From Formosa sp. Hel1_33_131 (GTDB lineage: Bacteria > Bacteroidota > Bacteroidia > Flavobacteriales > Flavobacteriaceae), in the NCBI RefSeq assembly GCF_001735745.1, contig NZ_CP017260.1, positions 2,580,001 through 2,612,000 of the forward strand: a stretch of 32,000 nt of DNA, in the 5' to 3' direction. The first letter of the stretch is position 1. Each line of letters begins with the position of its first letter. Positions 7,977 to 21,958 of the stretch are shown piece after piece. Below the pieces are notes generated by a model. That model was given only the letters and a program-made list of their open reading frames with translations. It searched no databases and was not told where the DNA came from. Both the position numbers and the translations under genes were made by a program.

Positions 7977-8588
7977 TCACAAGATTAATTCCAATGGTGC
8001 ATCACTAACTGCTGCAATTTCAAAGGGTATTATATTTTGTTTCCCTTCTAGTTGTGGAAAATTAATGTCTTCTATAACCAATCTATAAATAGACTTGTCT
8101 AAAAACAATTCACCAATGACTTCTATACTATCTGCAATGTTTTCCCACTTCAACAATTCTTGGTGTTGTTCGTATGCAGATACTTGTGGCGTATCTAAAC
8201 ACAGCCCACGAAAACGTATTTGCCAATCATCAAAGCCATAAATCTCTTTTACCGTCCCATTACTCCCAAGTATTTTTGTTTTAGTGATGTTTTTTGCACG
8301 TCTAAAATCAATTAACGTGGCTGGTGGAATATTAAAATCATTTAATGCTTGATCATCAATTATACCTGTTTCTTTATAATATTGATATGTACTACCTTTA
8401 AACACCGTTGGATAAATAATAGGAGTTCCCAGCCATGACATTTTTTTAGCTTCTTTTTTTTCCTTAACAGGAATTGAAGTATAGCTAGCATCCCCATTTT
8501 GTGGTGCATCATTTGGCAATACAAAATTGGCTGTATTTACACCAAATGCTTTGCTTAATAAAGTTGCTATGTCAAAGTTTGTATTCAT
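7977..8588 (-). CDS. Tail/baseplate protein immediately after the tape measure
   Basis: 203 aa. Its start abuts the TMP stop. Function is suggested by position (Mu gp43 slot). Confidence 0.4.
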   Translation of the reverse strand: MNTNFDIATLLSKAFGVNTANFVLPNDAPQNGDASYTSIPVKEKKEAKKMSWLGTPIIYPTVFKGSTYQYYKETGIIDDQALNDFNIPPATLIDFRRAKNITKTKILGSNGTVKEIYGFDDWQIRFRGLCLDTPQVSAYEQHQELLKWENIADSIEVIGELFLDKSIYRLVIEDINFPQLEGKQNIIPFEIAAVSDAPLELIL

Positions 8589-10588
8589 TATAAGCTTATG
8601 ACTGCATCACGCAGTTTATCATTAATTTTCCCTGTGACTGCATCCGAAATTTTATCGACTTCATCGCGCCAATTATTAGCAATATTGAAATAGTTTTTTA
8701 TTTCTAAATTCATTGTTATTCGTTTGCCAACACCTTTACCAGAACCAGACAACCCAGATCCTTTTCCACCCGCTTTTACTACGCCATCTTGCGAACCATC
8801 TAAGCGTGGTGCATAACTCCCTACTTTGCCAGTTGGCAATACACTTTCTTCTTCATCTTCTTTTAGACTTAAGGACGCTCCAGCTTTCAGAAATTCTTTC
8901 CCAGACTGTAATGCTAAATCTGCGGCCTCTTTATAACCATCTACTATAGATTTTTTTCTAGCTTCTGTGTCTGCATTAATTTCGGCAAGCATCTTTTGGT
9001 TTTCGGTACTATCTCCAATACCCATCGCTTCCTTGAATTTATACCAACCCGTTTTAATGAGATTGATACCTAACATGAAGCCACTAACAAAAACATTAAG
9101 ATAGGCTTTGGTGGCCGCAATAAATGATTTAAACAATAGCTTTGCGCCCGTCCAAGTGTGGTCCCATGCTTCGCCCCAGCCTGTAATACTCGTTACTAAC
9201 CAAACAATGCCTGCAACTAATGCTGCAACACCAACTATTATTAGCCCGATTGGATTGGCGGTTAATGCTGCATTCCATAACCATTGTAATGCGGTCACTA
9301 CTTTTGTGCCAGCACTTTGTAGCCAAGTCACTTTAGTTAGAGTTGTTATTATTGGGATCATAGAAGCGATGCCAGTTGCTACAGGTGCTAATTCCACAAC
9401 ACTTGATGCAATACCGCCAAATGTTTCTGTAAAAGCGGTTCTAACACCTGCTAACCATCCTCTTATGGAGGCACCAGAAGAAGCTATAGAAGGTATATTG
9501 TTAATATCTAAATCAATACTGCCAAGCCCTTCAATCCAACCAATACCTGCATCCTCACCAGCGCCTTTAAAAATATCTGCGAGTACTAATTGCTTAGCAC
9601 TTACAGTGGCACCGTCCATCGCTTTACTAATCATCTGTACAGCTTCAAATGTGGTTTTTCCAGCTAAGTCTTTAACTTCAATGCCAATCCCTTTTAAGGC
9701 TTCCACTTGTGGTTTGCCCATTTCTCGTAAAGACAAATCAGCCTCTTTAATACTGTCAATCGCCTTATCTGAAAATATACCATCCTTACCCGCCTTCGCC
9801 ATCAATGCAATCGCTTGTGATTGTGATAAACCAACTTGATTTATAAAGGTTGGGTATTCTTTTAACTGGTCTATAAAATCACCATTAATATTTGCGCCTT
9901 TTTCAAAGCCAGCTTCTATTAATGCAAAGTTTTCTTCGTAAGAACCGCCTATTTGCTTGGTCATAGCATTCGCAGCTTTGGCAATTTCTTCTGGGCTTTG
10001 CTTAAAGACTGCACCTAGCTTATAGGCTCTCTCAGTAAGGCTGTCTAATTGTTCACCAGATGTGCCAGAAAAACGTTCTATAGTGGTGCTTAAATCATTA
10101 ATTTCAGTCGTAAACCGCAAACCATCAATCGCTTTGTTTACCAGTTCTATTGCTTGGTTGGCAACAACAACTGCTGCACCCCAATTAGCCTTCATTTTTT
10201 CAGAATTTGGTGCTTTTTCTACGGCTTCTAATTCATGCTGTACTTCAACTAATTGTTCTTTATAACGTCTAACTTTAGTTTCCGCTTTTTTAATGTCAAA
10301 ATCTATTGTTGCTTTTAGTAAAGGATCTATTGCAGGACCTAAACTTTTTAAATGATTTTTTAAGCTGTCTAGTTGTTTTTCTTCTTTTTTAACTTCTTTG
10401 GTAAGATCACTAAAACTTTTAATTGCGTTTTGAGCCGTTGCTTTTGTAGCATCGTCCATACCATCTAAAGCGCGTGTCACATTGTGAAGTGTCTTATTAA
10501 CATTTTTAGTTGCGCCATCAACGCTTCGCATAGGTGCAGTCACCTTGTCTATTAATTCAAAAACCCAACTTGTTTTACTGCTACCCAT
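8588..10588 (-). CDS. Tail tape measure protein
   Basis: 666 aa. N-terminal coiled coil, a central Gly/Ala-rich hydrophobic block (…IGLIIVGVAALVAGIVWLV…), and it follows the frameshifted chaperone pair. Confidence 0.85.
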   Translation of the reverse strand: MGSSKTSWVFELIDKVTAPMRSVDGATKNVNKTLHNVTRALDGMDDATKATAQNAIKSFSDLTKEVKKEEKQLDSLKNHLKSLGPAIDPLLKATIDFDIKKAETKVRRYKEQLVEVQHELEAVEKAPNSEKMKANWGAAVVVANQAIELVNKAIDGLRFTTEINDLSTTIERFSGTSGEQLDSLTERAYKLGAVFKQSPEEIAKAANAMTKQIGGSYEENFALIEAGFEKGANINGDFIDQLKEYPTFINQVGLSQSQAIALMAKAGKDGIFSDKAIDSIKEADLSLREMGKPQVEALKGIGIEVKDLAGKTTFEAVQMISKAMDGATVSAKQLVLADIFKGAGEDAGIGWIEGLGSIDLDINNIPSIASSGASIRGWLAGVRTAFTETFGGIASSVVELAPVATGIASMIPIITTLTKVTWLQSAGTKVVTALQWLWNAALTANPIGLIIVGVAALVAGIVWLVTSITGWGEAWDHTWTGAKLLFKSFIAATKAYLNVFVSGFMLGINLIKTGWYKFKEAMGIGDSTENQKMLAEINADTEARKKSIVDGYKEAADLALQSGKEFLKAGASLSLKEDEEESVLPTGKVGSYAPRLDGSQDGVVKAGGKGSGLSGSGKGVGKRITMNLEIKNYFNIANNWRDEVDKISDAVTGKINDKLRDAVISL

Positions 10589-10847
10589 TTTTTAATACTT
10601 GGCTTAAAATTTCAACTAATGCTTTTTTATTTGCGCCTTCAATAACTTTATACAAATTTTCCAGATCTGTGTGCTTTACATATAAATATTCCTGGTAAAG
10701 CTTTGCCCATTCATTATTACTTAATTTTTCTGGATTAACTCCAATAAAATGGGACCGTAAAAGAGCATTGATTTTTTGTATAAATTGATGGTCCTCTTTT
10801 GATTCGTCTTCATCGACCTTTAAGGTGTAAAGGTCTAACGCTTTTTT
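10581..10847 (-). CDS. -1 frameshift extension of the tail assembly chaperone (gpGT / gpE'-like)
   Basis: I translated the -1 frame codon by codon from the slip site: ...KK-ALDLYTLKVDEDESKEDHQFIQKINALLRSHF...SQVLKNG*. It has no stop until 10581, no internal start, and overlaps the TMP ATG. Confidence 0.75.
   Translation of the reverse strand, partial: KKALDLYTLKVDEDESKEDHQFIQKINALLRSHFIGVNPEKLSNNEWAKLYQEYLYVKHTDLENLYKVIEGANKKALVEILSQVLKNG
10815..10847 (-). promoter_or_regulatory. Programmed -1 ribosomal frameshift signal
   Basis: Slippery heptamer A_AAA_AAG (10847..10841), a 5-nt spacer, then a perfect 8-bp hairpin GACCTTTA-CACCT-TAAAGGTC (10835..10815). Confidence 0.75.
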
Positions 10848-11167
10848 AGAGTTTTTTTGGCTTTAGATTTAAGTAGATTCACGCTATCAAGTACTTCTAA
10901 ATACACTTCACCATCTTTCTCTAAAGCTTCCATATCACCCCCTAAAACACAGTTTTTAATAAGAACCTCGTTCACCTTTTCAACATCTTTTTGTGCTGCA
11001 TGCCGTCCAATGGCTTTTAATACATTACGGTCTGGTTTTCGCACAATAAATTTATACGTTTTACCATCGACTTCAATGTCTAAGTCAGAAATTCGACTTT
11101 TGCCATATTGAGCTTCCCATTTTGCATTATCTTCTGCTGTAATGTCTTTATGTTTTTGATATTCCAT
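10835..11167 (-). CDS. Tail assembly chaperone (gpG / gpE-like, zero-frame product)
   Basis: 110 aa, lying between the tube and tape measure genes. It ends ...CTA AAA AAG CGT TAG, which contains a slippery heptamer. Confidence 0.75.
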   Translation of the reverse strand: MEYQKHKDITAEDNAKWEAQYGKSRISDLDIEVDGKTYKFIVRKPDRNVLKAIGRHAAQKDVEKVNEVLIKNCVLGGDMEALEKDGEVYLEVLDSVNLLKSKAKKTLKKR

Positions 11168-15263: not shown

Positions 15264-16421
15264 TTATTGTTGGTCGCCAAAGTAGCCAGCTTCTAAAGCG
15301 TCGGCTTGTTTTGGATTTTCTACTTTCATTTTTTCGTAAGCTTGTGGATCTTTATCTAAATAATCCTCCAAAGTCCATTCTTTACGGGAGGCTTCAAGTG
15401 CATCATTACCATCTGCTGGAGTTAAATCAGCACTTAATTTTGGTTTAGTTACCATTGCTTCAAGTGCAGTTTTTGCTGCATCAAAGTTTGCGGTTGCTAA
15501 ATCAACATAGGTTTGCTTTTGATCTGCGGTTATTTTTTTAACAGCAATGGCAGCATCCACTAAAGTGTTCACTTCTTTTTCAGCTGCTGTTTTTTGCGCA
15601 TCTGTTGCAGCAGCAGTCGCTTCACGTTGTTTTAAAGCATCTATTTTCATAGCTTTTTGTGCGGCTGTAATTTCAGCATCAGTAGCACTCGCTTCTAAGC
15701 CTAAGAAGGCAATTTGTTCTTCTCGATTCATAATTTGTATTTGTTTTTGATTTGTTTTTTGTGTAGTTGCTTTTGGCACTATCGGGGCACCACAAGCTTC
15801 AAGTGTGGTCACGTCTTCTGCGCTTATTGTTCCATCTTCATCAATAATGGCATCAATAAAACCTTCTGTTTTGGCTTCTTCTGCACTCATCCAATGGTCG
15901 CCACCTTTCCAGAGTTCTTCAATTTCGGTAGTAGTCTTGCCGGTCTTTTTTGTGTATTTTGCCAAATAATCTTTGGTTACACTTCTAAGTAGCTTTAGTT
16001 CTTTTGTGATTTGGTCTTCATTTCCAAATGTGCCAAGCATAGGCTTGTGTATCATTATTTGCGAGTTCGCATAAGCACTTGTATAATGACAAGCTGTAAA
16101 GTATGTTGCTGCACTAGCAGCAGATGCCCCAACAGTTATATTAACTTTATCAAACCTGTTTAACTGGTTATTAATTTCAACAGCTTCAAATACGGAACCC
16201 CCATTACTATTTATATACACATTAGCTTCTGTATGTGTTTTTAGTAATTCATCTACTTTTTTCTGAAAGTCGCTAGAGTTATTGGCATTCCAATTAGCGA
16301 TACGTCCTATAATACGTATATAGGCTTTGCCATCTTTACTTTCAGCAGTAAGCTGTAAAGGCCTTGCCTTGCTATCTGGCTTGGCAGATCCTATAATAAT
16401 AATGCGTTTCTGTGACTTCAT
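15264..16421 (-). CDS. Prohead protease (ClpP/S14-like) fused to an Ala-rich scaffold domain
   Basis: INSNGGSVFEA...VGASAASAATYF...IMIHKPM match ClpP-like Ser/His motifs. The C-terminal ~150 aa are an Ala/Lys/Glu-rich helix. There is an internal in-frame ATG at 15731. Confidence 0.8.
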   Translation of the reverse strand: MKSQKRIIIIGSAKPDSKARPLQLTAESKDGKAYIRIIGRIANWNANNSSDFQKKVDELLKTHTEANVYINSNGGSVFEAVEINNQLNRFDKVNITVGASAASAATYFTACHYTSAYANSQIMIHKPMLGTFGNEDQITKELKLLRSVTKDYLAKYTKKTGKTTTEIEELWKGGDHWMSAEEAKTEGFIDAIIDEDGTISAEDVTTLEACGAPIVPKATTQKTNQKQIQIMNREEQIAFLGLEASATDAEITAAQKAMKIDALKQREATAAATDAQKTAAEKEVNTLVDAAIAVKKITADQKQTYVDLATANFDAAKTALEAMVTKPKLSADLTPADGNDALEASRKEWTLEDYLDKDPQAYEKMKVENPKQADALEAGYFGDQQ

Positions 16422-17133: not shown

Positions 17134-17403
17134 ATGAGATTTAAACTATTAAAAAAGATGATAAGCCTTATTGCAAACAAGGCAACTAGAAAAGAAATAT
17201 ACCTAGAGTTGGGGGCGCACTTTATTAAAAAAGGTGCTAATTATCAAGTTGGCGAAATTCTTTATAAGAAGAAAATTCAAGGCGACCATAAACTCTACAA
17301 AGCTAAGGTAGTAACAAACTTATATTTTGAATTTGATACCAACAAAATTTATGTAAGACGCAACAACCGCTTTGTGACGCCAAATCAAGTGGTCAAAAAA
17401 TAA
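17134..17403 (+). CDS. Hypothetical basic protein between TerS and TerL
   Basis: 89-aa ORF with a TAATG stop/start overlap with TerL. Confidence 0.5.
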   Translation: MRFKLLKKMISLIANKATRKEIYLELGAHFIKKGANYQVGEILYKKKIQGDHKLYKAKVVTNLYFEFDTNKIYVRRNNRFVTPNQVVKK

Positions 17404-18917
17404 TGAGAAAAGAAGACAAACAAGCATTAGAACGCTATAAAAAGCGGTTAGAATTTGCGAAAAGTGCGGGTACAGTGAATGCTTTTGAAACAAAAGTAGA
17501 ACAAACTGCACGCATTGATCGAGCAAAAAAAGACTATGCTTTTATGTGTCAACAATATTTTCCGCATTATGCAACATGTGAACCAGCAGAATGCCATTTA
17601 AAGGCTGCAAGACAAGTAATAAAAAATCCAACTATTAAGAAGTTTGACGAATTACCTCGGGGGTTTGGTAAGTCAGTAATGGACGATGTTTTATTGCCTT
17701 TTTGGCTTTGGATGAATGACCAAGCGCATTACATGGTGGTGGTTACGGTTAGCAAAGACCGGGCTAGTGAATTACTTGAAGATTTACGTGCCGAATTTGA
17801 AGGCAACCCAAAAATTATAAACGACTTTGGTGAACAACACAATATTGGGCAATGGGAAAAAGGTTTTTTTATTACCAAAAGTGGGTTTGTAGGCAAAGCA
17901 TTGGGTGCTGGTCAATCCGTACGTGGTTTGCGTGTAAAAAGCAGAAGGCCAGATTACATTGTAGTAGATGATCTGGAAACGAAGGAAACCATTAAAAACC
18001 CAAAACGCCAAAACGAATATGTAAAATGGATTGAACGTGATTTAATCCCAACGATGGATGGCGACATACGACGTTTTGTCTATGCCAATAACCGCTTTGC
18101 TCCAGTAATGATACAAACCAAATTACAGGAACGCCACCCAAAATGGATTGTGAACCATGTAAAGGCGTACGATCCTATTACCTATAAGCCAACTTGGCCA
18201 GCCAAGTATAGCGACACCTATTACAAAGAATTAGAAGATGAAATTGGGACGCTTGCTTTAGAAGCAGAATATTTACAAAAGCCACATATTGAAGGTGAAA
18301 TCTTTAAAATAGAACACATTCAATATTGCAAGCATCTTAGATTAAATCAATTTAAACACATCGTTGGCACCTGGGATGTTGCGTATAGCGGTAAGAGTAC
18401 AGGCGATTACAACGCTATTGCAGTACAGGGCTTACACCAAAAGAACTTTTATGTTATTGATGGGTTTGTAAAGCAATGCAAAATGCGTGAAGCTGTGGCC
18501 TATATGTGCGATTTTCAAAAACGGTTGCCACCAACAGTAATGGTGCATTGGAAATTTGAAGCCCAATTTTGGAATGATGAAGTAGAACGTGTCATAAAGG
18601 AAACCCAAAAAGCTTTTGGCATCATCTTAAACATCACCAAGCTTTTTGTACCAAAGGTTAAAAAGTACGATCGGATTTTAAGCTTGCACCCATATTATCA
18701 AAATAACCGCATTTTCTATTTCGAGAAATTAAAGGCAAGCAATGATGTGCAAGTAGGCATAACACAGCTGCTTGGAATAGAACCAGGTTACAAAACACAT
18801 GACGATTTTCCAGATACACACCAACAGGGTATTACCATACTGGAAACCTACAATGTGCCAGAGGGTGCCAACCAATATAAACAAGGTAAAATGTTGCCTA
18901 AAAACGAACGGATATGA
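17403..18917 (+). CDS. terL: Terminase large subunit
   Basis: 504 aa. Walker A-like LPRGFGKSV, Walker B DYIVVDDLE, and a C-terminal nuclease-size domain. Confidence 0.85.
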   Translation: MRKEDKQALERYKKRLEFAKSAGTVNAFETKVEQTARIDRAKKDYAFMCQQYFPHYATCEPAECHLKAARQVIKNPTIKKFDELPRGFGKSVMDDVLLPFWLWMNDQAHYMVVVTVSKDRASELLEDLRAEFEGNPKIINDFGEQHNIGQWEKGFFITKSGFVGKALGAGQSVRGLRVKSRRPDYIVVDDLETKETIKNPKRQNEYVKWIERDLIPTMDGDIRRFVYANNRFAPVMIQTKLQERHPKWIVNHVKAYDPITYKPTWPAKYSDTYYKELEDEIGTLALEAEYLQKPHIEGEIFKIEHIQYCKHLRLNQFKHIVGTWDVAYSGKSTGDYNAIAVQGLHQKNFYVIDGFVKQCKMREAVAYMCDFQKRLPPTVMVHWKFEAQFWNDEVERVIKETQKAFGIILNITKLFVPKVKKYDRILSLHPYYQNNRIFYFEKLKASNDVQVGITQLLGIEPGYKTHDDFPDTHQQGITILETYNVPEGANQYKQGKMLPKNERI

Positions 18918-19333
18918 TTTACTTAACGGATGATGATTTACTAACCGATAGTTTTCAGCGCTTTATTGATGAAAGCTCAAAAGACAATGAAGATGTGGTT
19001 GCTAATGCAGAACTAAAATGTATTGGCATCATTAAAACAATGCTTAAAGGGCGTTATAATACGGAGCTGATTTTTGATGAAACAGATCCCGTACGTGATG
19101 AGTTTTTAGCAGACATCTTAACCAAATTAACGCTACACAAAATATTTGGGCGTAATGCAGCACGTAAAGTACCAACAGACGTTAAAGACAATTACGATTG
19201 GGCCATGAAGCAATTAGGGTTGCTAAATGCAGGAAAATTACAGCTCGAATTACCAAGCCCCACAAACACCGATGGCACAGCTTCAGCTGCACCAATGTTT
19301 GGCAATAATACAAATCCAGATTTTTATATATAA
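18914..19333 (+). CDS. Head-tail connector protein (Mu gp36 / DUF1320-like)
   Basis: 139 aa. The pattern LTDDDL...AELKCIGIIKTMLKGRY...DILTKLTLHKIF...YDWAMKQLGLLNAGKL matches my recollection of this family. Confidence 0.5.
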   Translation: MIYLTDDDLLTDSFQRFIDESSKDNEDVVANAELKCIGIIKTMLKGRYNTELIFDETDPVRDEFLADILTKLTLHKIFGRNAARKVPTDVKDNYDWAMKQLGLLNAGKLQLELPSPTNTDGTASAAPMFGNNTNPDFYI

Positions 19334-20598
19334 TGAAAATACCTAAAATTATACACAACGCCGTTGCAAGATATGTTTTTAAAAATACCGATGAGCGCAC
19401 CTTAAAAGTTGTTGCAGCAACAAAGTCTGGTAACAGTAAAAGTTTAAGCGACCAAACCGAAAAAGAAGCGATTAGTATGCAGGCTAAAACACTTGCAGAT
19501 TGGAAGCTCGCATTAACATTGGCTAGTGATCCAGAAGAACCCACTTTTGGAGCATTAGAAAAATTATATCAAAATCTGGAGTTAGACAACCATTTAGTAG
19601 CTACGATTGAAAACAGAATAGAGCCGGTGCAAGGCACGCCATTTAAACTCACAGACCAATCTGGTAAAGAAAATGAAGAAGCCAAAGAACTATTTGAAGC
19701 AATGTGGTTTATAGATTTTATAGGGGTGTGTTTGCGTTCAAAGTTTCAAGGTACTAAAGTGGTTGAATTATTCGACCTAGACGAAAACATGCACCTAGAA
19801 AGCATCACAGAAGTACCTAAGGCACATGTGATACCATCAAAAGGTATTATTACAAAAGAAGCTGGTGGTACAACTGGATGGAATTATAAAGAAGGTATTT
19901 TTGCAGATCAATACATTCAAATTGGAAAAAATGATTTTCTTGGGATGTACGCACAGCTTGCGCCAATTGTACTCGCTAAAAAATTAGGCTTTGGTTCGTG
20001 GTTAGATTATGTAGAAAAGTATGGTGTGCCTCCAATTTTCGCCATTACAGACCGTGAAGATCAAGCACGTTTAGACCAACTCTACAATGCGTTGTTAAAT
20101 TTCAAGTCCAACAACTTCATGGTAGGTCGTGGGCAGGAAAAATTTGAGATTGGTAAAGATACTGGTGGAGGCTCTTTTGATATTTTTGATAAGCTAATTG
20201 AACGGGCAAATAGCGAACTATCTAAACGTATTTTAGGCGGTACCGGTACAACCGACGAAAAAAGCCACGTGGGTGCTGCAAATGTACATGCAGACATCTT
20301 GGCAACGAAGCACAAGCTAGATAAGTTTTTTGTAAAAGTTATTATTAATAATCAGTTAATCCCACGGCTCGTAAAGATAAGCCCCATATACGCATCCTTA
20401 GCTAATCTTAAATTTGATTGGGATGATGCCGAAACATTAACGTTAAAAGAGTTTATAGACACCGTTAAAGCTTTAAGTGCCTATTATGAAATTGATATCG
20501 AAGAATTGGCAACACGTACAGGCATTCCAATTACGGGTTTAAAAAATGCAATGGCAACACCACCAACCGATCCAGATCCTCAAAAAAAAAAGGAGTAA
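19333..20598 (+). CDS. Portal protein (Mu gp29 / DUF935-like)
   Basis: 421 aa, lying between the TerL/gp36-like genes and the MuF-like gene. It ends in a 10-A run. Confidence 0.7.
   Translation: MKIPKIIHNAVARYVFKNTDERTLKVVAATKSGNSKSLSDQTEKEAISMQAKTLADWKLALTLASDPEEPTFGALEKLYQNLELDNHLVATIENRIEPVQGTPFKLTDQSGKENEEAKELFEAMWFIDFIGVCLRSKFQGTKVVELFDLDENMHLESITEVPKAHVIPSKGIITKEAGGTTGWNYKEGIFADQYIQIGKNDFLGMYAQLAPIVLAKKLGFGSWLDYVEKYGVPPIFAITDREDQARLDQLYNALLNFKSNNFMVGRGQEKFEIGKDTGGGSFDIFDKLIERANSELSKRILGGTGTTDEKSHVGAANVHADILATKHKLDKFFVKVIINNQLIPRLVKISPIYASLANLKFDWDDAETLTLKEFIDTVKALSAYYEIDIEELATRTGIPITGLKNAMATPPTDPDPQKKKE
20582..20592 (+). promoter_or_regulatory. Candidate -1 recoding or transcriptional slippage site at the portal stop
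   Basis: CAA AAA AAA AAG GAG TAA contains A_AAA_AAA and A_AAA_AAG. The -1 frame is open from 20496 into the MuF ORF. Confidence 0.35.
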
Positions 20599-20666
20599 CT
20601 GAAGCGTTTACAAATATTGAGGCCTATTATAATGCGCCTTCATGTTCTCACGACCATGCAGCACCT

Positions 20667-21866
20667 GTGGCAATAGATTTAAATGGTTGGAATAAGACCA
20701 TTACACGCATTGCAAAACATCTACACACTGGGAAGTTAAAACCAAGTGATTTAGACCAGGATCTAATACAGCGCACATTTACTGAGCTTAATAAGGCTGC
20801 TGCTGAAGGTTATGGCGCAAACTACACCAGTTACAGTACAGAAAACAGTAAAACGGTACAACAGCTTCAGCAAAACATTTACCAGTTTAGTGCTGCTAAG
20901 ACGTTTCAGCAATTACAGAAATACAATAGTTTATTAGTAGATGAAAACGGCAAAGAACGTTCATTTTCTAGCTTTAAAAAGGCAGTATTAGCGGTGCATC
21001 CAAAATATAACACGAACTACTTACAAGCCGAATATCAAACCGCAAAAGCATCGGCGCAAATGGCAAGAAAGTGGCAAGGGTTTCAACGCAATAAAGCACG
21101 ATTTCCATATCTTAAATACAAAACAGTTGGAGACGACCACGTGCGTGACGATCACCAAAGGTTACAAAACTTTACAGCCCATATTGATGATCGTATATGG
21201 GACAAGATCTACCCACCCAACGGATGGCGGTGTCGCTGTTATATTGTGCAAACGAATGAAGCAAGTAATGAACCATCACCAGATACAAGCTTTATAGATC
21301 CTGAATTTAGTTTAAATGTGGGCAAAACGGGTGTAATATTCTCACCAGAACACCCCTATTTTGTGTTCCCTAAAAAAGATGAAGACAGTTATAAAAAGGC
21401 ATTTGAAACCTTTAAACTGATTGCTCCTTATGGAAAAGCAAAGTTTACAGCTAAAAATGGAGCTAAAGTATTTGTCAGTCCGTTTGCAGATCCTAACGAT
21501 TTAGAACACAATTTTGAAGTGGCTAAAGTGATGGCGAACACGCTTAAAAAGACTATAAAAATACGTCCGCATACGGATGGTACTGTAATCCTCAATGCAA
21601 AAAATCCAGAATACTTAGTCAATAAAAAAATCGCAGATTTAAAAGCTCCAAAAGGAGTCGCTTTAAAAAATATTTTTAAGAAGGCTAACAAACAAAAAAC
21701 AAAGGTGGTGGTGATTGATTTATTAAACAATCCAAATTCATTTGCACAAATGAAATTAGCGATTATAAAAAGGCTTGGTATAACTGATATTTATCCAAAT
21801 ATTGAAGAAGTGATTTTAATTTCAAAAGACCGTAAAACAATTGAAGTAATTAAACGCAAAAAGTAA
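20667..21866 (+). CDS. MuF-like minor head protein (Phage_Mu_F / SPP1 gp7 family)
   Basis: GDDHVRDDHQRLQNF...IYPPNGWRCRCYIV is the MuF signature. Its only nearby start candidate is GTG. Confidence 0.85.
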   Translation: MAIDLNGWNKTITRIAKHLHTGKLKPSDLDQDLIQRTFTELNKAAAEGYGANYTSYSTENSKTVQQLQQNIYQFSAAKTFQQLQKYNSLLVDENGKERSFSSFKKAVLAVHPKYNTNYLQAEYQTAKASAQMARKWQGFQRNKARFPYLKYKTVGDDHVRDDHQRLQNFTAHIDDRIWDKIYPPNGWRCRCYIVQTNEASNEPSPDTSFIDPEFSLNVGKTGVIFSPEHPYFVFPKKDEDSYKKAFETFKLIAPYGKAKFTAKNGAKVFVSPFADPNDLEHNFEVAKVMANTLKKTIKIRPHTDGTVILNAKNPEYLVNKKIADLKAPKGVALKNIFKKANKQKTKVVVIDLLNNPNSFAQMKLAIIKRLGITDIYPNIEEVILISKDRKTIEVIKRKK

Positions 21867-21903: not shown

Positions 21904-21958
21904 AACTAATTTCTTGAAATTACTCGCGACCCTTGTTACAGTACAAATATACAAAAAA

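Follow-up and report, generated by a model that had tools for sequence, protein, structure and literature searches.

The window analyzed here is a stretch of 32,000 nucleotides (nt) from Formosa sp. Hel1_33_131 (contig NZ_CP017260.1, positions 2,580,001 to 2,612,000 of the forward strand). It has a GC content of 35% and carries a phage or prophage that is Mu-like and of the Flavobacteriia type. On the plus strand, the gene for a Mu-type portal protein of 421 amino acids (aa) extends from 19333 to 20598, directly followed by a reading frame for a MuF-like protein (20592 to 21866; 424 aa plus stop) that lies in the -1 frame relative to the portal and has no conserved start. A homopolymer of ten adenines (A10) occupies positions 20582 to 20591 at the 3' end of the portal gene. 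From comparison with related phages, we consider it very probable that this run is a programmed -1 recoding site and that MuF is made only as an extension of the portal.

The portal was identified from the list of open reading frames (ORFs) and from profile matches to PHROG 113 (portal) and Pfam PF06074 (Portal_Mu/DUF935), the latter covering aa 77 to 398 (E = 9e-59; 199.9 bits compared with a gathering cutoff of 23.9). The MuF frame matches PHROG 220, described as "minor head protein and DNA pilot." Both the portal and the MuF of the window are matched by the profile of PHROG 35074, a family of fused portal-MuF proteins. In the MuF frame, the Phage_Mu_F (SPP1 gp7-like) domain is located at 21000 to 21245 (Pfam PF04233; E = 4.6e-13; 50.3 bits compared with a gathering cutoff of 29.6).

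The portal, with the C terminus ...TDPDPQKKKE*, ends in CAA AAA AAA AAG GAG TAA (20581 to 20598). Judged by the phase of the portal ORF, two overlapping -1 heptamers, A_AAA_AAA (20583 to 20589) and A_AAA_AAG (20586 to 20592), lie in phase at 20583 to 20592, and a single codon (GAG) separates the second from the zero-frame stop TAA (20596 to 20598). The -1 frame is open without a break from 20496 to 21866 and is continuous with the MuF ORF. GTG at 20667 is the sole canonical start ahead of the conserved MuF body, and the first in-frame ATG is found at 21060, codon 132 counted from this GTG. An initial annotation of the sequence had described the A10 run with its two heptamers, the open -1 frame shared with MuF, and the lack of an ATG start, and all of these were confirmed. 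The open -1 frame on the 5' side of the run (86 nt), which it had noted, proved to be incidental, as many relatives have a -1-frame TAA overlapping the first two A's.

A -1 slip, or a transcript with eleven A's (A11), would yield a predicted product of 844 aa and about 95 kDa with the junction ...DPDPQKKKGVTEAF..., in line with the fusion of about 840 aa that had been anticipated. The junction has three lysines, not the four expected earlier. A transcript with nine A's is predicted to give a 422-aa portal variant. The apparent intergenic gap (20592 to 20666) is, by protein conservation and codon-position diversity, -1-frame linker coding sequence, GVTEAFTNIEAYYNAPSCSHDHAAP, with a conserved IEAxY...C.H motif; the gap-encoded peptide predicted for the window fusion is GVTEAFTNIEAYYNAPSCSHDHAAPVAIDLNGWNK. 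A single A10 within 32 kb at this GC content is not significant alone. Its significance derives from its conservation, not from its occurrence in the window.

Conservation of the A10 run in close relatives

By tblastn, the nearest cultured phage is Winogradskyella phage Peternella_1, with a portal 70.6% and a MuF 53.6% identical to those in the window. Its junction, CCT AAA AAA AAA AGT CTA AAA AAA GTG GTC TAA, also contains A10 with MuF in the -1 frame. Since Peternella_1 forms plaques with the same arrangement, the arrangement is not a defect. A scan of IMG/VR yielded 14 loci with 12 distinct junctions (that of L010, for example, is identical to that of L003), portal identities of 45 to 92%, and diverged flanks. 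Exactly A10 was present at the homologous spot in the window and in 14 of 14 of these loci, with MuF in the -1 frame in every case. Depending on the clade, the run occupies codon phase 1, 2, or 3, and the zero-frame stop follows 1 to 8 codons past it. In phase-1 loci, the -1-frame TAA overlaps the first two A's, so a shift is possible only inside the run. The -1-frame translations align from the first residue past the run (KKK..IEAxY...C.H/CxCxxC...LKPSDL), and the nucleotide diversity of the gap, 0.374, 0.354, and 0.526 at codon positions 1, 2, and 3, respectively, is a coding signature.

These data bear on whether MuF is a separate gene that starts at GTG 20667 or at a noncanonical codon, with the A-run and the open frame being incidental. 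The GTG is called by ORF finders, and some relatives have their own MuF ATG. A missing Shine-Dalgarno (SD) sequence is no argument against such a start, as translation in Bacteroidota initiates without SD pairing. However, the GTG is not conserved, its position being occupied by Leu or Glu in close relatives, and conserved coding begins 25 codons 5' of it. Several relatives lack any start codon: two loci (L007 and L008) have no ATG, GTG, or TTG within 100 codons, and three more (L027, L051, and L079) have no start codon within 80 codons. Candidate starts of other relatives are scattered at nonhomologous positions, and the GTG annotated for MuF in Peternella_1 is not homologous to that in the window. 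Together with the conserved in-phase slippery heptamers described below, and with the fact that the IEAYY...C.H linker is missing from those relatives whose MuF has its own ATG, this makes a separate gene very improbable. An SD-like GGAG after the run was dismissed because it is not conserved in relatives. A scan of the gap for sigma-70 promoters and terminators revealed no terminator and no promoter signal above background.

Homopolymers are error prone, and A9, A11, and A12 variants of the run exist among relatives, so that the frame break might be thought to stem from a sequencing or assembly error, from a pseudogenizing mutation, or from a tract that is phase variable at the DNA level. This explanation is the least credible of those weighed here, and we give it almost no chance. 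The identical portal, recovered in four independent metagenome assemblies (ENA twice, Logan, and JGI), carries A10 in all of them, and A10 occurs in 31 distinct loci from isolates and metagenomes. Loci with A11 and A12 still have MuF in the -1 frame, so these length variants do not toggle the frame. In-frame fused genes contain A10 as well, the difference lying outside the run, and distant relatives have nonhomopolymeric heptamers at the same position.

The four contigs with the identical portal (L094 to L097) start differently but share their last base, which lies about 92 nt past the A-run (window position of about 20683). This shared endpoint suggests a branch in the assembly graph and a mosaic boundary at strain level, located where the MuF body begins. 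In L003 and L010, MuF (78% identity) is less conserved than the portal (89 to 92%), which fits such a boundary.

Slippery heptamers across the wider family

One genome per GTDB species was scanned with a MuF profile, resulting in 77 prophage loci, essentially all of them in Bacteroidota. The genera included Formosa, Yeosuana, Tenacibaculum, Polaribacter, Chitinophaga, Riemerella, Capnocytophaga, Chryseobacterium, and Flavobacterium, in addition to metagenome-assembled genomes (MAGs) of Bacteroidales. The -1 relation between the two frames was rejected as evidence in itself, since ATGA-type overlaps give the same relation, and in-phase heptamers and missing starts were used instead. Combining GTDB genomes and IMG/VR, an in-phase X_XXY_YYZ heptamer was found in 68 of 71 distinct -1 loci. 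The count was confined to the interval from the last -1-frame stop to the portal stop, which averages 46 nt. The rest of the same portal ORFs contained 198 in-phase heptamers per 26,744 codons (0.0074 per codon), from which about 0.1 would be expected per interval. The last in-phase heptamer was A_AAA_AAA in 26 loci, A_AAA_AAG in 16, T_TTT_TTC in 13, A_AAT_TTT in 4, G_GGA_AAG in 3, and T_TTT_TTT in 2, and a further 4 loci had singletons; at least 10 heptamer types occur across the family. A zero-frame stop followed 0 to 3 codons past the heptamer in 48 of the 68 loci.

Loci that lack a long A-run contained heptamers in phase 40 times, compared with 9 and 9 in the other two phases. Their short sites are of the types T_TTT_TTC, G_GGA_AAG, A_AAT_TTT, C_CCT_TTT, and A6-7G, and they are often accompanied by strong stem-loops starting 5 to 8 nt downstream (for example, in L052, L091, L083, L079, L061, L043, and L027). 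When downstream folding was compared with dinucleotide shuffles, short-site loci were more stable than loci with nine or more A's (mean z score of -1.51 versus -0.76; Mann-Whitney P = 0.01), the mean minimum free energies being -17.0 and -9.7 kcal/mol, respectively. Phase-locked, interchangeable heptamers with spaced hairpins are the classical signature of ribosomal -1 frameshifting, and sites such as G_GGA_AAG or A_AAT_TTT cannot work by polymerase slippage. Among the 37 A-run loci, 31 have A10, which occupies phases 1, 2, and 3 in 15, 6, and 10 loci, respectively.

Elizabethkingia phage TCUEAP3 (L100; OK632026) has an in-phase T_TTT_TTC, and its MuF is annotated from an ATG 278 nt downstream. 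In the deposited records of Peternella_1 (L001; MT732475; 3175) and TCUEAP3 (2217), MuF starts at internal GTG or ATG codons that lie 98 to 278 nt past the portal stop; these annotations leave conserved coding sequence out and name the portal and MuF inconsistently. The A10/-1 arrangement was also observed in locus L054 (A10 at 2459), on a contig binned as a MAG of the alphaproteobacterial family Roseobacteraceae. This is either a misbinned Bacteroidota phage contig or an arrangement that extends beyond Bacteroidota.

In-frame portal-MuF fusions

A search of the hypothetical 844-aa product against 5.8 billion proteins returned more than 90 clusters of 830 to 880 aa in which portal and MuF are joined in frame. 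With 89 to 100% query coverage and 31 to 49% identity, these proteins are colinear with the predicted product; they contain PF06074 and mostly also PF04233, and for many of them a CdiA_C domain has been precomputed. All of the 15 fused proteins inspected have KKK at the junction, mostly as QKKK or EKKK. In Porphyromonas gingivalis phages, one 852-aa "portal" (BK068092) includes MuF, and this fused ORF has an in-phase T_TTT_TTC within the linker.

Most of the in-frame genes inspected have retained the A-run: A10 in phase 2 in L025, L028, L033, L065, L103, L104, and L106; A9 in L045 and L105; and A12 in L102. A prophage of Pseudotenacibaculum haliotis is among the in-frame relatives with A10. 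In most of these, the -1 frame stops 1 to 3 codons past the run, so that a slip would, by analogy with dnaX tau/gamma, release free portal. The polarity can be flipped by a single nucleotide. In a Dysgonomonas sp. ZJ279 prophage (L104), the junction reads CAA AAA AAA AAG AGT AAG (1550 to 1575) where the window has CAA AAA AAA AAG GAG TAA (20581 to 20598). The two differ by a single G beside A10, and a 1-nt indel thus converts an in-frame fusion into a frameshift-dependent one and vice versa. On a neighbor-joining tree of the portals, which is rough, A-run sites form one large clade, and fused states are scattered among -1 states, implying at least 6 switches. To judge from these sequences, the -1 loci and the fused genes share a slip site at the portal/MuF boundary with two predicted products, portal and portal-MuF. 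The comparison of related phages proposed in the initial annotation was therefore positive on every count: the A-run and the open -1 frame are kept, and fused genes exist.

Proposed recoding at the portal/MuF boundary

We propose that the majority of decoding ends at TAA 20596 and would give free portal of 421 aa. A fraction would shift to the -1 frame inside the run and continue for 424 further codons, yielding the 844-aa portal-linker-MuF protein (...DPDPQKKK|GVTEAFTNIEAYY...). The shift could occur by tandem slippage of tRNA-Lys on A_AAA_AAA or A_AAA_AAG or, alternatively, by stuttering of RNA polymerase, which would add one A and be followed by ordinary translation. Either route leads to the fusion beside free portal that had been put forward at the outset, and the comparative evidence supports it. 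Because MuF has no initiation site of its own, the fusion would be its sole route of synthesis.

In established portal structures, the C terminus (crown) of the portal points to the capsid interior, and a C-terminal extension would therefore sit within the head. The covalent tether would attach MuF to some of the 12 portal subunits, on the side facing the capsid interior, and would set its packaging and copy number, as in Gag-Pol or lambda G/GT. At a slip frequency of 8 to 17%, 12 subunits would give 1 to 2 tethered MuF per virion. The head protease of the phage might release MuF later; as a lead only, the Mu portal gpH is presumably processed at its C terminus.

Some observations weigh against this proposal. 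Loci were sampled with MuF motifs as seeds, and portal and MuF frames were assigned from high-scoring segment pairs of tblastn. The in-frame fusions likewise conserve KKK at the protein level, so selection for lysines could account for part of the conservation of the A-run. MuF has its own ATG, and the IEAYY...C.H linker motif is absent, in L069, in L076, and in the cultured Flavobacterium phages pippi8-1 and FPSV-S1, so a tether is not obligatory for MuF function. Downstream of the window site, RNA folding gave a z score of +0.43, and no conserved structure was detected in the clade of the window, which bears out the earlier remark that no strong hairpin lies 3' of the run. Given this, ribosomal efficiency at the window site could be low.

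Possible ribosomal and transcriptional slippage

Ribosomal and polymerase slippage at A10 give the same protein and are not separable in silico; by our estimate, both contribute. One possibility is that the shift at A10 is mainly transcriptional, the polymerase stuttering on the T10 template to produce many A11 mRNAs, with ribosomal slippage being minor in this clade. According to the review PMC5009743, bacterial RNA polymerase slips efficiently on 9 A/T, with a threshold of at least 9 A/T in the coding strand, and the A10 run at 20582 to 20591 is long enough. For the RNA polymerase of Bacteroidota, such slippage is an assumption. Exactly A10 is kept in all three phases, though a ribosomal site needs only 7 nt and one phase; nevertheless, A_AAA_AAA or A_AAA_AAG is available in phase whichever phase A10 occupies. 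Transcriptional slippage would also fit the lack of a 3' stimulator in the clade of the window and the lower downstream stability of loci with nine or more A's. Both non-MuF frames stop shortly past the run, and in-frame fused relatives retain A9 to A12 while stops close their other frames, a layout that resembles Thermus dnaX. The polarity flips on the portal tree would be easier to tolerate at a slip frequency of tens of percent. On the other hand, the related A6G, A7G, G_GGA_AAG, A_AAT_TTT, and T_TTT_TTC sites are too short for polymerase slippage, which argues that the ancestral, family-wide mechanism is ribosomal. On balance, we regard a mainly transcriptional shift at A10 as quite possible rather than probable.

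The same phage contains a second slippery site, at its tail chaperone genes on the minus strand. G (110 aa; 10835 to 11167) ends in CTA AAA AAG CGT TAG, with A_AAA_AAG at 10847 to 10841 followed by CGT and TAG, as the initial annotation had indicated. The -1 shift there adds an 86-aa T extension (10583 to 10847) that reaches the start of the tape-measure gene (666 aa; 8588 to 10588, minus strand). The run is only A6, and this site therefore speaks for a purely ribosomal reading of A10 too, in which the shift takes place on A_AAA_AAA or A_AAA_AAG and the extra A's represent tandem heptamers or lysine codons. The in-phase heptamers throughout the family, including nonhomopolymeric ones with hairpins, and the closeness of the zero-frame stop to the site point in the same direction. 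Nonetheless, a ribosome-only model does not explain the conservation of A's outside the in-phase heptamer, the window offers no stimulator, and, judging by PMC5009743, A10 is expected to provoke polymerase slippage regardless. An exclusively ribosomal shift at A10 thus appears rather unlikely to us.

Programmed recoding, by whichever route, may extend to a more general picture, which we hold tentatively. In Bacteroidota Mu-like phages, the portal/MuF site would be a second recoding site, a head-module counterpart of the tail G/GT site, which is universal, and the sole route into the capsid for MuF and its nuclease-like cargo domain, with the A10 clade relying largely on polymerase stuttering of high efficiency, at tens of percent. 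If true, stuttering of this order would explain how polarity was flipped repeatedly by 1-nt indels without loss of the run.

Relation to known systems

The tail chaperone -1 frameshift of the lambda G/GT type is said to have been described by Levin, Hendrix and Casjens in 1993 and by Xu et al. in 2004. As in G/GT (reviewed in PMC5009743), the downstream domain at the portal/MuF boundary has no start of its own and would exist only as a fusion, the arrangement persists in phages whose sequences have diverged widely, and a fixed molar ratio would result; the window phage carries its own tail site of that kind. In contrast to G/GT, the site described here joins portal and MuF in the head module, the window site, a homopolymer of 10 nt, has sufficient length for polymerase slippage, and members of the MuF family are encoded elsewhere by genes of their own or within in-frame fusions.

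The second parallel is dnaX tau/gamma. According to PMC5009743, Escherichia coli dnaX uses a -1 frameshift on A_AAA_AAG, Thermus thermophilus dnaX uses transcriptional slippage on A9 accompanied by stops in both alternative frames, and some species have reversed polarity. The slippery sequence is identical to that in the window, and stops in alternative frames lie directly past it. The relatives with an in-frame portal-MuF and A10 would make their short product by slipping, like gamma, whereas in the window the polarity would be reversed and the slip would produce the long protein, as also described for some dnaX genes. Unlike dnaX, the gene here encodes a viral structural protein, not a replication factor, and the window site lacks SD-like or hairpin stimulators.

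In-frame fusions have been described before. Cluster B1 mycobacteriophages encode a "portal and MuF-like fusion protein" (PMC9584339). These fusions, those of Porphyromonas phages, and PHROG 35074 share the order of portal, linker, and MuF domain with the predicted window product, and the Bacteroidota ones are colinear with it. However, they are single ORFs, whereas the halves in the window lie in different frames and would need recoding. The mycobacteriophage portals presumably belong to a different portal family. SPP1 gp7, a member of the MuF family, binds portal gp6 and is present in 1 to 2 copies per capsid, as cited in PMC5576092. There, as proposed here, a MuF-family protein encoded directly downstream of the portal is portal associated and of low copy per virion; the binding of gp7 is noncovalent and involves a separately translated protein, whereas a covalent tether is proposed for the window. 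In retroviral and totivirus Gag-Pol and in T7 10A/10B, a minor virion component is likewise a frameshift extension of a structural protein. The carrier in the present case would be the portal, with 12 copies at one vertex, and not the capsid protein, and the setting is a DNA genome in a bacterial host.

No report of a portal-to-MuF frameshift was found in the open-access literature and bioRxiv, which yielded in-frame fusions only. The papers on Peternella (PMC8776804) and on the P. gingivalis phages (bioRxiv 2022.12.30.519816) mention no portal-MuF frameshift, and the word "portal" is absent from the first 300,000 characters of the 2016 recoding review PMC5009743. The class of mechanism is well known; what the portal/MuF site adds is its unusual breadth and the polarity flips. 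One consequence concerns annotation. In Winoviridae such as Peternella_1, in Elizabethkingia phage TCUEAP3, and in dozens of Bacteroidota prophages, the annotated MuF genes begin at arbitrary internal codons, and the real product of these genes is probably, from the sequence comparison, a portal-MuF fusion of about 840 aa. The proposal would also offer a testable mechanism for targeting a MuF/gp7-type protein to the portal vertex and for counting it there, as 12 subunits times the slip frequency, and it would add to the known recoding sites one that is widely conserved and belongs to the head module of phages. Within one family, long homopolymers, heptamers with hairpins, in-frame fusions, and separate genes interconvert. 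The portal/MuF family thus provides a natural series in which ribosomal slippage can be compared with polymerase slippage, in a phylum whose translation starts without SD pairing.

Gene neighborhood, MuF C-terminal domain, and linker motif

The portal and MuF are part of a plus-strand gene order of terminase, gp36-like adaptor, portal, MuF, and gpG-like gene. The large terminase (17403 to 18917) was assigned from the ORF list and Pfam/PHROG profile matches; it is followed by a gp36/DUF1320-like adaptor (18914 to 19333), and the gpG-like gene begins at 21914, on the 3' side of MuF. Protease, capsid, and tail genes are located on the minus strand of the window, the head maturation protease at 15264 to 16421. 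A transfer RNA scan of the window detected none, megablast of the region against phage genomes gave no match, and a sequence search of the portal and MuF against PDB returned no matches.

The C terminus of MuF contains a CdiA_C-like domain (21600 to 21836; Pfam PF18451), a match that is borderline (27.1 bits compared with a cutoff of 26.6). CdiA_C is a tRNA-nuclease toxin domain, and this part of MuF may, by its sequence, be an injected effector. MuF polymorphic toxins (Jamet et al. 2017, PMC5576092) combine a variable C-terminal toxin with a downstream immunity gene; here, relatives share one conserved domain (RPHI..KNPEY..K.AD.K) instead of polymorphic ones, and the match is borderline. No small immunity-like ORF is present in the window between the end of MuF (21866) and the gpG-like gene (21914). 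Two tiny ORFs were observed 3' of MuF in Peternella_1.

Within the linker, at 20610 to 20650, IEAxY is followed by C-x-H or, in deeper clades, by C-x-C-x-x-C. The motif was seen in L003 to L022, in L011 to L016, and in the fused proteins P0006 to P0021, and it is absent from pippi8-1 and FPSV-S1. It could correspond to a small metal-binding knuckle.

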